Shown here in pieces: positions 17,430 to 38,804 of a DNA stretch of 64,000 nt (position 1 is its first letter; each line of letters begins with the position of its first letter). Source of the DNA: a virus (Duplodnaviria > Heunggongvirae > Uroviricota > Caudoviricetes). A program made the position numbers and the translations under genes. A model generated the notes under the pieces. That model had not been told where the DNA came from and did not search any database. It was given only the letters and a program-made list of their open reading frames with translations. The DNA lies in IMG/VR virus record IMGVR_UViG_3300022660_000042; one strand, given 5' to 3'.

Positions 17430-17505
17430 TCTCCCCTCCTGGATTCGAACCAGGGTTATTTCTGCTTGTAGGGCAGACGCCATTAACCTGCTAGGCGAAG
17501 GAGAG
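17430..17505 (-). tRNA. tRNA-Val(TAC)
   Basis: Cloverleaf, loop CC-TAC-AA. Confidence 0.8.
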
Positions 17506-17509
17506 TTAA

Positions 17510-17568
17510 GGCGGGCAGTAGTTTTGCGATAATCCTAATTCATCTGTTAAATAGGAACTGCCGTTGCC
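17510..17568 (-). ncRNA. Structured module copy just 5' of tRNA-Val
   Basis: GGC-AAC-GGCAGT-TCCTAT...ACTGCC-C-GCC. Confidence 0.7.
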
Positions 17569-17781
17569 TAAAATCTTTTTGACTATATCTTCATAGTCTC
17601 TTAATTGGCAGCCACTCTCGGACATTCAGGTGACCCATCAAGATCTTCAATTATCAGTCCTGATTTCTTACGCTTAGAGTAAGAACTCTACTATTTGGTG
17701 CCTTCCGACATATAGCGTAAATCAACATAACGTATATAGCTATATGAAACTCGTTTCCTAGCGATCTTGCTAAACTTTTAG

Positions 17782-17854
17782 TAGCGGGGGTCGGACTCGA
17801 ACCGACGACTTCAAGGTTATGAGCCTTGCTTGCTAGCCACTGCATCACCCCGCG
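17782..17854 (-). tRNA. tRNA-Met(CAT), fMet-like acceptor
   Basis: CGCGGGG acceptor, loop CT-CAT-AA. Confidence 0.85.
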
Positions 17855-17997
17855 TCAATAAAACTCGAATGTACTGTTACTGGAGGTCTCTGATTATACC
17901 AGCTCTTCCCGCAGCTGACATCCCGTTGCTGCACCCGGCTTAGCATTATAAAGAGTCTGCAGCTTCTAAATAACGCCTAACAGTATATTATTTATAG

Positions 17998-18070
17998 CGC
18001 TGGAAGAGAGAATCGAACTCCCAACTGCCTGATTACAAATCAGGTCTTCTACCTATTGAAGTATTCCAGC
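17998..18070 (-). tRNA. tRNA-Thr(TGT)
   Basis: Cloverleaf. Confidence 0.9.
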
Positions 18071-18374
18071 AAAAGGTGTAATTGTGCTTGTCAAGCTTGG
18101 TTCGATCTAGTTATCTGCAAGTAATCCCAATCGGGTGCTTTACATTAACCTGCAACCATCATGTCCCTTCGCTCCAATTACAAGAGCGTTACGTTATTAA
18201 AGCTTACGCCACGGGTAACGAACCCCCTGCACTCATATTTATGGATTGCTCCACGCGTTGTGTTGGAACCCACGCTTCCGTTTTGACACCAGTGGAATAT
18301 TCCTGGGGTTTTACTTTCGGTTAAAGCAAGTAAGTAACTTTGAGGATCACAATGCAATCGACCCACAGGTTGTA

Positions 18375-18450
18375 TCGGCGTACCTGGATTCGAACCAGGG
18401 AAACCTCTTGATCCCAAATCAAGCGCTCTACCAGACTGAGCTACACACCG
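18375..18450 (-). tRNA. tRNA-Pro(TGG)
   Basis: C1-G72, A73. Confidence 0.9.
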
Positions 18451-18502
18451 CAAGTTTTTAAGGTGGTTCCACCACCAGCTGACTACAGCTATAACGTTTT
18501 AG

Positions 18503-18575
18503 CTGTCCTTCCTGGACTCAAACCAGGGACCAAGTGATTAACAGTCACCGACTCTACCTACTGAGCTAAAGGACA
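18503..18575 (-). tRNA. tRNA-Asn(GTT)
   Basis: Cloverleaf, G73. Confidence 0.9.
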
Positions 18576-18657
18576 ATGTTTTAATCATTCATTTACGTCG
18601 TATAATATAGTAAATTATGCTCCGTTTGTAAACCCCTTTAATTAAAAAAATTTTTAA

Positions 18658-19383
18658 TCAACTGAGTTTTTCTTTAATACTTTCCCAAGTTAAATTGTTT
18701 TTATCCAATATGATTATTCGTATTCCATTCTGTTGTTGTACAATCGCAATCTTTTCAACATCAGTAATACCAAATTTTTTAGTTTTATTATTTATTAAAT
18801 AATCATTTTTTGGATCTAGATATACATCATATTCAGGAAGGTAAAAATCAGGATAATAACGATGTTTTATACCTTTAGTATCTTCCCAAATAAAATATGT
18901 AGGTCTTTCCCATTTTACTTGGTTTTCATCAAGCGTTTTTGCTACCTCAAATTCATATGTAGAATCAAGACTTGTTCCTTTATATTCTATAGTTTTTGAA
19001 GTATGCCAACCACCTAAATGACGTTCAAATGCAATTTCTCTCAGTTTTTGTTTATGCTCTTCAGATTGCGGATGACTAAAAATTCGTTTTCCTTCATCAG
19101 TTCCTTTATAACGCTCTGAAAATGTTTCACCTTGTTTCCTTACGCGTTCATCACTATCTTTAGTTAATCCTTTATTCCAAGCATAACTACCCGGAGCTAA
19201 TTTTCTTTTACCATTTTCATCTATAATATATTTTTGACTAGTTTTAATAGTATTTAAATCACATTCCTTTTTATGTTCATTTAAAAGACGTCTAGTCCTA
19301 AATATATTTTGACAAAATGGGCAAATCCAATTATTATATGCATTTGCTTGTTCTCTAACAACTTTATATCTACAATTTTTCAT
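18658..19383 (-). CDS. Putative homing endonuclease (Zn finger + NUMOD-like + PD-(D/E)xK domain)
   Basis: CPFC..H, WNKGLTK, DSTYEFEVAKTLD..RYYPDFYLPEYDVYLDPK; TATAAATA at 19388-19395. Confidence 0.75.
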   Translation of the reverse strand: MKNCRYKVVREQANAYNNWICPFCQNIFRTRRLLNEHKKECDLNTIKTSQKYIIDENGKRKLAPGSYAWNKGLTKDSDERVRKQGETFSERYKGTDEGKRIFSHPQSEEHKQKLREIAFERHLGGWHTSKTIEYKGTSLDSTYEFEVAKTLDENQVKWERPTYFIWEDTKGIKHRYYPDFYLPEYDVYLDPKNDYLINNKTKKFGITDVEKIAIVQQQNGIRIIILDKNNLTWESIKEKLS

Positions 19384-19425
19384 ATTGTATTTATATGAGT
19401 TGGTAGAGCAGTTGTTTATTTTTTA

Positions 19426-19496
19426 CGCTTCCACCTGGACTCGAACCAAGAAATCCGGACTACTAAACCGGCATTTTACCATTGAATTATAGAAGC
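19426..19496 (-). tRNA. tRNA-Thr(AGT)
   Basis: Loop TT-AGT-AG; A34. Confidence 0.75.
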
Positions 19497-19505
19497 TAAA
19501 AATTT

Positions 19506-19573
19506 GGCGGGCCGTAAAACCTTTTGATTACCAATCAACTGCTCATCTGAGCTAAATAGGAACGACCTATGCC
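19506..19573 (-). ncRNA. T-armless tRNA-Thr(GGT)-like RNA closed by the structured module
   Basis: GGC-ATA-GGTCGT-TCCTAT-T-TAGCTCAGATGAGC-A-GTTGA-TTGGTAA-TCAAA...ACGGCC-C-GCC. Confidence 0.65.
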
Positions 19574-19577
19574 ATTA

Positions 19578-19660
19578 TCAGGGTAGCAGGATTCGAACCT
19601 GCGATGTCACGAGGACGCTAGCTCCCGAAGCTAGTGGCAAACCAACCTGCCGCTACCCTG
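19578..19660 (-). tRNA. tRNA-Pro(CGG) with a long variable arm
   Basis: C1-G72, A73; variable region CGTCCTCGTGACATC. Confidence 0.8.
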
Positions 19661-19674
19661 TTTTAATTTGTTCG

Positions 19675-19747
19675 TCAGAGTGGCTGGGCTCGAACCAGCG
19701 ACCCCTCGCATCCTAGGCGAGCTCTCTACCAACTGAGTTACACTCTG
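19675..19747 (-). tRNA. tRNA-Pro(AGG)
   Basis: C1-G72, A73, loop CT-AGG-AT. Confidence 0.85.
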
Positions 19748-20518
19748 TTATTCAAACACATTTACCAAATTTTTATTTGGTAAAAAATGCTTACGTTTTT
19801 GTTCATCATGTTTACTATAGATTGGAATATATTTTTTAAACTTATTATGTAAAGCAATTTTAGATATTCCAAGTTCAATAGCCATATCTTCTAGTTTGTT
19901 ATAATTACCAGAATGATATTTATTCCATAACTTTTCAGCCAATATTTTTCCATTATCATGAAGTAATTTTATCCAAGCAGCTTTATTTATTGTTATACTA
20001 TACTTACCAGATTTTTTTACTTTAATAATACTAGTTTCTCCATGAAAAAGATTTCGACCTTCAATCCAAAATGGTTCTAGTGGTTTTTCTTTAAACTTTT
20101 TAGATTCTCCAGTATTACGATTTGTATACCATTTAGTTCCAAATTGTGAATTTCTTTTTCCTGATTGGCTTATACTTGTTAATTTACTTATTGCCGTAGA
20201 AAATTCAATTCTTAATTTTTCATAAACACGCGAATTAATATATCGTTTATGATTTTCATTAATACCTTGCATTCTCCATAATGCACATAACATTTTATTT
20301 CTTTCAATAGTTCCTTTCTCATACATTTTAACAAGTAACCAATGACAGATAAAATGTTCTCTAGCAGTTAACTTAACAAGATTTTCTTTTTCGTTAGTTC
20401 CTCCTAATGATTTAGGTTGAATATGATGTTTTTCAAAATAACCTAAACTTCGCTTCCCATTTTCATTCTCCGTTTTTGCTTTTTCAATTATTTTATAATA
20501 TATGTTTTTGTAATTCAT
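19748..20518 (-). CDS. HNH homing endonuclease
   Basis: EKHHIQPKSLGG..NLVKLTAREHFICHWLL; NUMOD-like SQFGTKW. Confidence 0.9.
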   Translation of the reverse strand: MNYKNIYYKIIEKAKTENENGKRSLGYFEKHHIQPKSLGGTNEKENLVKLTAREHFICHWLLVKMYEKGTIERNKMLCALWRMQGINENHKRYINSRVYEKLRIEFSTAISKLTSISQSGKRNSQFGTKWYTNRNTGESKKFKEKPLEPFWIEGRNLFHGETSIIKVKKSGKYSITINKAAWIKLLHDNGKILAEKLWNKYHSGNYNKLEDMAIELGISKIALHNKFKKYIPIYSKHDEQKRKHFLPNKNLVNVFE

Positions 20519-28074: not shown

Positions 28075-28142
28075 AGTTTTTCCTTTTGTTAAAGTTTTTC
28101 TATAATATAATAAAAAGGTTGACATTCGTCAACCCTTTTTAG

Positions 28143-28231
28143 TGGACCCGACGAGATTCGAACTCGCGACCCATCGCTTAAAAGGCGATTGCTCTACGAT
28201 GTTGCCATCTAACCAACTGAGCTACAGATCC
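28143..28231 (-). tRNA. tRNA-Lys(TTT) with an extra hairpin in the D loop
   Basis: D loop contains GATG-GCAA-CATC. Confidence 0.8.
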
Positions 28232-28237
28232 ATATAA

Positions 28238-28325
28238 TTGAGGCGGCTGGATTTGAACCAGCGATGTGTCATTAACCGTACAGGATTCAAAGTCCCGCGC
28301 CTTCACCGGACTAGGCAACGCCTCA
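28238..28325 (-). tRNA. tRNA-Gln(TTG) with a long variable region
   Basis: T1-A72, loop CT-TTG-AA, 18-nt variable region. Confidence 0.8.
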
Positions 28326-28334
28326 ATAATTTAG

Positions 28335-28408
28335 TACCCGAGGTGAGACTCGAACTCACAGGTGCGGATTAGAAGTCCGCTCGTTTGATCCTATTAACGG
28401 ACCCGGGC
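28335..28408 (-). tRNA. tRNA-Arg(TCT)
   Basis: Loop CT-TCT-AA. Confidence 0.85.
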
Positions 28409-28414
28409 AAAATA

Positions 28415-28500
28415 TCGGCATACAAGGAGTCGAACCTTCCCGGACCGCCCTGGTGTTTGCTACGGGCCGGTTTATAAGACCGGTCCAAGGGAGTATGCCA
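28415..28500 (-). tRNA. D-armless tRNA-like RNA, anticodon TAT, large variable arm
   Basis: TGGCATA/TATGCCG, CCGGT-CTTATAA-ACCGG, T arm GAAGG-TTCGACT-CCTTG. Confidence 0.6.
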
Positions 28501-28539
28501 ATGTAGTTTGTTTAAAGTGAGTAGCTCTCTCACTGTTCG

Positions 28540-28611
28540 TGGACCTATCCAGACTCGAACTGGAATCCGAAGATTAAAAGTCTCCTCGTCTACCTATTGA
28601 CATATAGATCC
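28540..28611 (-). tRNA. tRNA-Lys(TTT)
   Basis: Cloverleaf. Confidence 0.85.
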
Positions 28612-28618
28612 AAAGTAA

Positions 28619-28694
28619 TTGGGGCAGAGAGATTCGAACTCCCGAATAACGATTTCAGAGACCGTTGCCTTAAACCAGACTTGGCGATACCCCA
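28619..28694 (-). tRNA. tRNA-Gln(CTG)
   Basis: T1-A72, loop CT-CTG-AA. Confidence 0.9.
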
Positions 28695-28699
28695 GTATA

Positions 28700-28730
28700 T
28701 AAAAAACAGTTCCTGTATTGCTACAGGAAC
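28700..28730 (-). terminator. Attenuator terminator 5
   Basis: GTTCCTGTA-GCAA-TACAGGAAC + TGTTTTTT. Confidence 0.85.
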
Positions 28731-28760
28731 CGTCTAATCAGATAAAGTGAAACTTATCGT

Positions 28761-28838
28761 CTATTCGCTACCCATAGCAAAACACACAGCAACTTGCTGT
28801 TTTCTTATCTGTTTTACTTGTTTAACGAACCTTAACAT
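28761..28838 (-). CDS. Putative attenuator leader peptide MLRFVKQVKQIRKQQVAVCFAMGSE (not in ORF track)
   Basis: 4 Gln, 3 Lys, 2 Arg (AGG/AGA), Ile ATA; TGCTATGGG at 28771-28779 is complementary to the terminator 5' arm. Confidence 0.85.
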   Translation of the reverse strand: MLRFVKQVKQIRKQQVAVCFAMGSE

Positions 28839-28943
28839 TTTTCTGTTATCCTTTTGATATTATATATAGTTTTTATTTTTTAATTTTCGCTATATAATAT
28901 AGCAAAAACTTTTTCTTTTGTAAACCCCTAAAAGGAAAATTTT

Positions 28944-35154: not shown

Positions 35155-35455
35155 GTTGAACGGAGAGATCTAGCCTAGCAGGAATCACTAGACTAAACAC
35201 AGCTACTCTACTTTTGGCATAAAGTTTCGCGTGTCAATCTGGGGGACTTATGAACACTCTTACTGGTCGGTCATCCTGTACTCAGGCTACATAGTGTTCA
35301 GCCATGGCGGCAAGTGTATAGTTTGCTAAGCTATACTCGATAATCGAATCGCCTTTAACGTATACTTCCGATTTCAAAGTATACAGCGGCTTAGCCTCTA
35401 CCGATAATACCATTGGATTGGATTTCGTTCCGAGGACTAAGGCTCGAATGTCAGG
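35155..35455 (-). ncRNA. Candidate large structured ncRNA
   Basis: About 300 nt without ORF, TATATT at its 5' end, many hairpins. Confidence 0.5.
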
Positions 35456-38425: not shown

Positions 38426-38450
38426 AGTATGTTTCCTTTTTAAATTTTAA

Positions 38451-38804
38451 TGGACCCGTTGGGAGTCGAACCCAAGTCTTGAATAACTTCAATATCCGTT
38501 CCTACAAGCTTTCCCTTCGAATTTACTTATTTGTCATACCTATGCCCTGAAGGTCGGCGTCGGTATAAACTAGCCTGTGATTTTCGGAAATAATAGACAG
38601 ACTTAACTATTTCCTAGCCCATTTGCGACTGGACTCTACACCCAACGGGCGAACGATATAGGTCCAGGGTTGCTATTGATTAAGCAGCCATTGCGTATGT
38701 ATTAGCAATTATTGTTTTCAGACTTTTTAACGTGTGTTTTCCCTCGTCTGAGACCACGGCTTGCAACTAATATATTCATCACCCAATCGAAACCAGGCGA
38801 GCCC
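38451..38804 (-). ncRNA. ssrA: tmRNA, tag (A)ANTYAMAA* at 38680-38706
   Basis: 5' GGGCTCGCCTGGTTTCGA, 3' GGGTTCGACTCCCAACGGGTCCA, G3:U70, resume context ATAATT-GCT, 354 nt. Confidence 0.92.

Follow-up and report, generated by a model that had tools for sequence, protein, structure and literature searches.

A short upstream unit probably controls six tRNA genes of a large phage by ribosome-mediated transcription attenuation, a mechanism that would place tRNA supply under feedback control. The sequence-only reading had proposed an attenuator at this site, reading ahead of Gln, Lys, Arg and Ile-type tRNAs, and that proposal is supported by every defining feature that can be read from sequence, by the geometry of the unit and by its conservation, with the reservation that the Ile identity of one RNA in the block is unproven. 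The anatomy of the unit, its codon match, its alternative pairings and its conservation are documented below. Translation of the leader, termination and regulated read-through are inferred. No experimental data are available, and neither the host nor its coupling of RNA polymerase to the ribosome and use of Shine-Dalgarno (SD) sequences is known.

The DNA analyzed, here called the window, is a stretch of 64,000 nucleotides equal to the reverse strand of positions 92026-156025 of a 411,059-bp virus record (38% GC; CheckV completeness, 98%). The record contains a T4-type Gp23 capsid gene (233.8 bits), and near-identical DNA was found in animal faeces and in bovine or sheep gut metagenomes. The phage is a T4-like gut phage. 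Approximately 50 to 55 tRNA genes plus a tmRNA are present in the record, and every gene in the window lies on the minus strand, as do all features given below. The phage-encoded tmRNA (38448-38804; tag ANTYAMAA) falls in the same early region as a cow-rumen-2 RNA (35239-35342; Rfam RF02947, 94.5 bits). Recoding of TAG, which would lengthen the leader open reading frame (ORF), was considered and rejected; the long ORFs agree with the standard code, with TAG as an ordinary, less frequent stop (TAA 74%, TAG 13% and TGA 13% of the long plus-strand ORFs).

The putatively regulated cluster of six RNAs occupies 28140..28694. First in the direction of transcription is a tRNA-Gln(CTG) (28694-28619), followed by a tRNA-Lys(TTT) (28611-28539), a tRNA-like RNA with a TAT anticodon, here called the TAT RNA (28501-28415), a tRNA-Arg(TCT) (28408-28334), an unusually long tRNA-Gln(TTG) of 90 nt (28326-28237) and a second tRNA-Lys(TTT) (~28231-28140). 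A strong terminator (28112..28139) closes the tRNA transcription unit and overlaps the promoter of the next gene. The D-loop of the second tRNA-Lys(TTT) is expanded, exceeding that of the orthologues in the related contigs L018 and L020 by 13 to 16 nt. The expansion is also found in L017, and the anticodon loop, CTTTTAA, is invariant.

The identity of the TAT RNA is less certain. Its anticodon loop is CTTATAA (UAU), its core is non-canonical, and it is missed by ARAGORN. A search of Rfam returned only a weak match to tRNA-Sec, at 30.6 bits against a gathering threshold of 47. Across relatives, double changes at 6 pairs show covariation of the acceptor and T stems, and the RNA sequence is nearly unchanged even in a contig in which the neighboring protein is 46% identical. 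A conserved hairpin lies beside it at 28516-28534. Because its stems covary and it resembles tRNA-Sec, albeit weakly, we conclude that the TAT RNA is a real structured tRNA-like RNA; that it is an Ile tRNA is unproven.

Upstream of the cluster, the unit begins with a sigma-70-type promoter, P1 (28896..28924), in which TTTACA and TATATT are separated by 17 nt and a TG extension is present (10 of 12 matches in the promoter scan). A TATATATAATA motif preceded by a T-run follows at 28858..28868 and may be either a second, T4-late-like promoter or part of the 5' UTR. Both P1 and the motif are invariant in relatives. Next is an SD-like AAGGA (28849..28853), about 10 to 15 nt before the ATG and conserved in all three alleles of the leader described below. 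An SD-like 4-mer at -9 to -14 precedes 57% of the long ORFs of the region, compared with 17% for background, and the SD context of the leader is typical of the phage's own genes. The leader ORF itself (28761..28838) has 25 codons and a TAG stop and encodes the peptide MLRFVKQVKQIRKQQVAVCFAMGSE. Within it, codons 6 to 15 (K Q V K Q I R K Q Q; 28794..28823) form a run of control codons, 9 of 10 of which are cognate to the downstream tRNAs.

Between the leader and the tRNAs lies an intrinsic terminator. It was the best match of the terminator scan (28701..28735; -15.6 kcal/mol) and has a stem of 11 to 14 bp, with its 5' arm at 28732-28722, its loop at 28721-28718, its 3' arm at 28717-28707 and a T6 run at 28706-28701 that the base of the hairpin overlaps. 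A spacer of 28 nt separates the leader stop from the hairpin (28735-28704), and 6 nt separate the end of the T6 run from the start of tRNA-Gln(CTG) at 28694. The promoter scan found no promoter-like site between the terminator hairpin and the tRNAs; the sole promoter-like sites are upstream of the terminator. Therefore, transcription of the tRNAs must cross the terminator.

The codons of the leader correspond to the tRNAs of the cluster. CAA, CAG, three AAA, AGA/AGG and ATA had been reported in the leader, and all are present, with CAA and CAG twice each and AGG, AGA and ATA once each. Cognate codons make up 10 of the 24 sense codons after the start, where 14% would be expected from the long ORFs of the genome (binomial P = 8e-4). 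Moreover, the choice among synonymous codons is biased given the peptide (AAA three times, AGR twice and ATA; joint P = 1.4e-3), and it runs opposite to the genome-wide preference, in which AAG exceeds AAA, CGT exceeds AGR and ATT exceeds ATA. When the whole genome was searched in six frames, 10-codon windows with at least 9 cognate codons occurred at only 7 places among 822,054 windows, and one of the seven is the present leader, ~130 nt before the cluster. The sequence-only reading had held that four Val codons make the match imperfect. GTT, GTA, GTT and GTG are indeed in the leader, and the cluster lacks a tRNA-Val, such that the codons are unmatched here. The objection is eased by the relatives, in which Val8, Val16 and Val18 are not conserved.

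Taken by itself, the codon match has a significance of about 1e-3 and not more. Short ORFs are plentiful, and the leader ranks 33rd by cognate fraction among 2758 ORFs of 15 to 45 codons. Thus, an ordinary promoter might read into an ORF present by chance, the terminator might merely end a short non-coding transcript, and the tRNAs might be made from elsewhere. We regard such a coincidence as very improbable. There is no promoter-like site from the terminator to the tRNAs from which they could be separately made, the unit is conserved far above the neighboring genes, its stems covary, and its layout is repeated in a family of six units.

How the leader might act as a switch was explored by folding. 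The 165-nt leader folds at -49.6 kcal/mol (z = -6.7 relative to dinucleotide shuffles). In the ribosome-free fold, region 1 (28810..28830), which contains the 5' halves of the two 1:2 helices of the minimum free energy folds (ORF nt 9-16 and 21-29), pairs with nt 55-63 and 69-76 in region 2 (28763..28784). The same fold contains a central CAGCA/TGCTG hairpin (28787..28799), pairing between the SD and the spacer, which is also seen in the full-length fold, and the terminator. The stem of the central hairpin is kept in all alleles while its loop differs (AGT, GAGA and AATA), and the hairpin is a candidate RNA polymerase pause hairpin. Region 2 may pair with region 1 or instead, via its core at 28780-28771, with the 5' arm of the terminator, and the latter pairing constitutes an antiterminator. 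The nucleotides of the GTGTTTTGCTATGGG stretch of region 2 are the same in every allele.

To represent translation, a ribosome was modeled as a mask on the mRNA reaching 14 nt beyond the first A-site nucleotide, and the transcript was folded before the 3' arm of the terminator was included. With the A site at codons 1 to 16, a range that includes codons 6 to 16, the truncated co-transcriptional fold is predicted to form a 10-bp antiterminator in which ORF nt 59-68, TTGCTATGGG (28780-28771), pairs with CCTGTAGCAA (28727-28718). A pairing of two leader segments had been claimed beforehand, and it was recovered as the core of this duplex. The antiterminator state has an energy of -17 to -24 kcal/mol and is lost from codon 18 on. 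The duplex alone is predicted at -15.6 kcal/mol, equal to the terminator (shuffle P = 0.008), and a spacer hairpin (28741..28758) is nested within it, the sequence of which is not conserved but the pairing role of which recurs in the three alleles. Mutually exclusive 1:2, 2:3 and 3:4 pairings, and hence three states, were found in the folds of alleles A, B and C. When the complete transcript was folded to equilibrium under the ribosome mask, the terminator was favored (P >= 0.98) at every A-site position other than codons 10 and 11. Because the terminator wins at equilibrium, the switch would have to be kinetic, as in the trp attenuator. The leader stop codon is placed directly after region 2. 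Of the six leaders of the genome, five have an antiterminator segment that runs up to just short of the stop codon (shuffle P, 0.004 to 0.05), so a terminating ribosome would cover the segment.

Relatives of the unit were found through homologues of the ORFan protein encoded upstream, in rumen and faecal metagenome contigs with identities of 89% (A), 71% (B) and 46% (C). A second, independent anchor, the core of the TAT RNA, added eight metagenome stretches. Together they define three alleles of the leader: allele A, present in the window and in L017, L032, L034 and L036, with the peptide MLRFVKQVKQIRKQQVAVCFAMGSE and a TAG stop; allele B, present in L018-L022, L035 and L037, with the peptide MLRFVKQVKQIRKQQRCWCFAMG and a TAA stop; and allele C, present in L024-L026, with the peptide MTRFVKQIKQIRKQQICWCFAMGDK and a TAA stop. 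No relatives were found among viral contigs when two flanking proteins were used as queries, and scanning viral contigs with the leader pattern and the TAT RNA core likewise found nothing. The upstream protein also has more distant homologues (P0010, P0008, P0015, P0026 and, examined directly, P0004), but none had an adjoining Gln/Lys/Arg cluster or gave a further allele. A scan of viral contigs for the terminator motif gave 16 matches, none with tRNAs, and these were discarded as unrelated terminators. In metatranscriptomes, relatives were present as contigs in four runs. One RNA-library contig (run X15) spans the leader, terminator and tRNA-Gln, and two from other runs end within the leader. 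As contigs only, these show neither RNA origin nor ends nor levels.

Across the alleles, the promoters, SD, ORF, region 2 and terminator are conserved, the spacer from stop to terminator cannot be aligned, and conservation of the unit far exceeds that of the neighboring genes. Substitutions within the ORF are mostly synonymous and at third positions. With codons 16 to 18 left aside, third positions account for 8 of the 11 nucleotide differences between alleles A and C (P = 0.009), and the codon changes are 7 synonymous versus 2 non-synonymous between A and C and 9 versus 2 between B and C. Such an excess is the signature of a translated frame, which is indirect evidence; translation itself remains an inference from the DNA. 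Allele C has Ile(ATA) in place of both Val8 and Val16, allele B has Arg(AGA) in place of Val16, and Val18 is replaced by Trp. As a result of the Val replacements, codons 6 to 16 of allele C are all cognate. The cluster of allele C has an additional Lys(CTT) and Arg(CCT), and its leader has an additional AAG codon.

Pairing is maintained along with the frame. The outer 1:2 helix covaries, as GTTCGTTA/TAGCGAAT in A, GTTCGTTAA/TTAACGAAC in B and ATTTGTC/GACAAAT in C, and its 3' partner is coding in A and C and past the stop in B. In the terminator stem of allele C, a compensatory T>C / A>G pair of changes also turns a G-U pair of the antiterminator into G-C. Finally, the SD is paired with three different spacer sequences across the alleles. 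Only three alleles are available, such that the counts of covariation are small; the covarying pairs were read from the folds.

Conservation of the frame might instead mean that the product is a functional basic micropeptide, in which case the hairpin could be a constitutive leaky terminator or a structure for 5' processing of the tRNA precursor and the codon match a by-product of a peptide rich in Lys, Gln and Arg. The amino acid sequence is kept across the three alleles through synonymous changes, as such a peptide would require, and K/Q/R-rich peptides are common, with six other K/Q/R/I-rich windows in the genome. Selection on a peptide, however, leaves unexplained the choice of isoacceptor, namely AAA here but AAG in another leader (leader d, below) and AGR and ATA against the genome preference. 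Nor does it account for the conserved 1:2 and 2:3 pairings, for the stop directly after region 2, or for five other leaders that each match their own tRNA block. Moreover, the C-terminal residues past Gly23 are not conserved among the alleles. We think a micropeptide quite unlikely, and attenuation remains our preferred explanation.

In the relative L024, the attenuator and the tRNAs are separated by an HNH endonuclease gene that carries a promoter of its own, and the tRNAs of L024 may be transcribed partly independently of the attenuator. This copy is 59% identical and stands before the first tRNA (L024:4752-5480). An 8-nt piece of the tRNA-Gln 5' end is repeated at its flanks, suggesting that the insertion is a mobile homing element. 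HNH-endonuclease-like genes are also found inside tRNA clusters of the window (19748-20518 and 18658-19383), with a borderline match to Pfam HNH (21.3 bits). Every HNH-like gene carries a separate AAAAATTATATATAATATATGAATTA promoter, and its end abuts a tRNA gene.

The leader is one of six in the genome. A TTTTTATATATAATA motif stands ahead of six short ORFs, ~20 nt before each, and each ORF is followed by a terminator and a block of tRNAs. Four of the ORFs lie inside the window, at 28761, 20822, 6437 and 898. The leader at 28838-28761, rich in Q/K/R/I codons, precedes Gln, Lys(TTT), Arg(TCT) and the TAT RNA. Others are a T/N/P leader before Asn, Pro, Thr, Met and Val, an E/F/A leader before Glu, Ala and Phe, a D/K/H/G leader (leader d) before Asp, Lys(CTT), Gly and His, an L/S/W leader before Trp, Leu and Ser(GCT), and a short Tyr-containing pair before Tyr, Cys, Met and Ser. 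When leader codons were compared with cluster anticodons in a 6-by-6 matrix, the true assignment was the best of all 720 permutations, and each of the five long leaders was enriched for its own block (P, 6e-4 to 9e-12). Both results wrongly took ATG as read by the TAT RNA; the value of 8e-4 given above for the Q/K/R/I leader is the corrected one. The cognate fraction of the Q/K/R/I leader, 0.42, is the lowest of the five long leaders (0.53 to 0.68 in the others).

Matching extends to the isoacceptor. Leader d has AAG five times before two tRNA-Lys(CTT), the Q/K/R/I leader has AAA three times and no AAG before two Lys(TTT), and the leader before tRNA-Ser(GCT) uses AGY only for Ser. An SD-like 4-mer is present at the spacing typical of the phage in five of the six leaders (P = 7e-4), and a GTTCCTGT terminator arm is common to three of the six terminators.

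Other features recur around these units. A T4-late-like TATAAATAATA motif occurs 10 to 40 nt ahead of the start codons of many genes, and TTTTTATATATAATA, found before all six leaders, is a variant of it. Several tRNA-associated units have a conserved sigma-70-type GGGGTTTACAAAAG...TTGCTATATT promoter upstream of the TTTTTATATATAATA motif, so two promoters may act in tandem. A module containing GTTCCTAT recurs in inter-tRNA spacers (window ~17500-19700) and, in relatives, is located just upstream of the promoter of an Asn/Thr/Pro leader (L023:6990-7060 and L028:4880-4950). Finally, TAG ends five of the six leader ORFs compared with ~13% of long ORFs (binomial P = 2e-4). TAG is likewise the stop of the Asn/Thr/Pro-type leaders in L023 and L028, but alleles B and C of the Q/K/R/I leader end, as noted, in TAA. 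The excess is unexplained; slow release of the ribosome might prolong its masking of region 2.

The shared GTTCCTGT arm raises the possibility that a protein of the phage or the host, or else an RNA (for example, a tRNA acting in the manner of a T-box), determines read-through by binding the leader or the arm and that translation of the ORF is irrelevant. A binding site would fit the nucleotide-level invariance of region 2 and the terminator, as well as the strength of the predicted structure. No T-box or other Rfam regulatory family matched the leader, however, even at E <= 1. In addition, substitutions in the ORF are three-base periodic and synonymous, and the SD is conserved at normal spacing. 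A factor-dependent switch also gives no role to in-frame codon matching over six leaders. Duplication of a cassette can account for the common terminator arm, since the units have their promoter and SD regions in common as well. We therefore consider control by RNA or a bound factor alone unlikely. Each of the alternatives weighed here leaves isoacceptor matching, periodic substitutions or the missing alternative promoter unexplained.

Attenuation by a translating ribosome, our favored reading, would operate as follows. Transcription would start at the conserved upstream promoter or promoters, and a ribosome would translate the 25-codon leader. If tRNA-Lys(UUU), tRNA-Gln, tRNA-Arg(UCU) or the reader of AUA were scarce, the ribosome would linger on codons 6 to 16. 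Region 2 would then be free to pair with the emerging 5' arm of the terminator, and RNA polymerase would enter the six tRNA genes. If decoding were fast, the ribosome would instead reach codons 18 to 26 or the stop, cover region 2 and allow the terminator to form. In the absence of a ribosome, region 1 would be expected to sequester region 2, again with formation of the terminator. The predicted net effect is negative feedback on the decoding capacity for AAA, CAR, AGR and AUA codons.

Leader-peptide attenuation is a textbook mechanism, known for amino acid biosynthesis and a few synthetase genes. In the pheST operon of E. coli, with its pheM leader, phenylalanyl-tRNA synthetase is attenuated in response to charged-tRNA supply, and a single amino acid is sensed. 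The phage unit is similar in that leader-peptide attenuation would act on genes of the translation apparatus, but pheST controls a synthetase protein through one amino acid, whereas the phage unit would control tRNAs through four codon families. T-box riboswitches also choose between terminator and antiterminator according to the state of the tRNA pool and control genes of the translation apparatus. They do so through direct contact with the tRNA, made by one specifier codon and the T-box bulge, and do not depend on translation, whereas the signal in the phage is an in-frame run of codons with an SD and an ATG. The T-box model RF00230 had no match anywhere in the window at its gathering threshold, nor in 28100-28900 with E relaxed to <= 1.

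A close parallel is with the amino acid leaders of enterobacteria. In the multivalent thr and ilv leaders, a shortage of any one species suffices (for the principle, see PMC1183508). The phage unit has in common with thrL (Thr and Ile), ilvL/ivbL (Ile, Val and Leu), trpL, hisL, leuL and pheL a short leader, runs of regulatory codons, 1:2, 2:3 and 3:4 pairings, an intrinsic terminator ahead of the genes under control and a stop codon at which a finishing ribosome would mask region 2. As in the multivalent leaders, several amino acid or tRNA species would be sensed by one leader. Unlike them, the unit is encoded by a phage, it would control tRNA genes rather than biosynthetic enzymes, and its loop would close on decoding capacity with resolution of isoacceptors (AAA versus AAG). 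The phage leader has no sequence similarity to them, the Rfam models of the Trp, His, Thr, Leu and Phe leaders do not match it, and the resemblance is one of mechanism, not homology. Close too are the sister leaders of the same genome. They share the TTTTTATATATAATA motif, the SD, the terminator, an antiterminator that runs up to the stop codon and a short ORF whose codons fit the tRNA block behind it, and they differ in what is sensed: the unit at 28838-28761 would sense Lys(AAA), Gln, Arg(AGR) and Ile(AUA). A full-text literature search, the coverage of which was incomplete, found no account of leader-peptide attenuation of tRNA genes. We conclude that the mechanism is already known in kind and that the tRNA-gene target, the phage setting and the isoacceptor resolution are new.

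The logic of attenuation appears here to regulate tRNA genes directly, as the speed of codon decoding is what is sensed and the tRNAs that read those codons are what is made. The sensed quantity and the product coincide, so the unit would be a minimal homeostat for translational capacity, and for synthetic biology the cassettes would be compact, codon-addressable sensors. One could imagine further that the ~55 tRNA genes, arranged in blocks that each have an isoacceptor-resolved sensor, form a decoding system that tunes itself by gauging, for each codon, what the ribosomes of the infected cell lack. Perhaps the block for Lys-UUU, Gln, Arg-UCU and the AUA reader, all of them tRNAs of split codon boxes with a modified U34, is switched on specifically when anticodon nucleases of host defense or tRNA depletion remove those species, as on-demand counter-defense rather than simple compensation for codon usage. 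We offer this extension as a speculation only and think it doubtful. Attenuation of tRNA genes would nonetheless explain how giant phages with dozens of tRNAs avoid producing them blindly, and it would also explain the sorting of phage tRNA genes into amino-acid-specific blocks. Ultimately, each leader spells out the shortages that matter to the phage, so the purpose of phage tRNAs, whether codon compensation or replacement of tRNAs lost to host defense, becomes directly testable.
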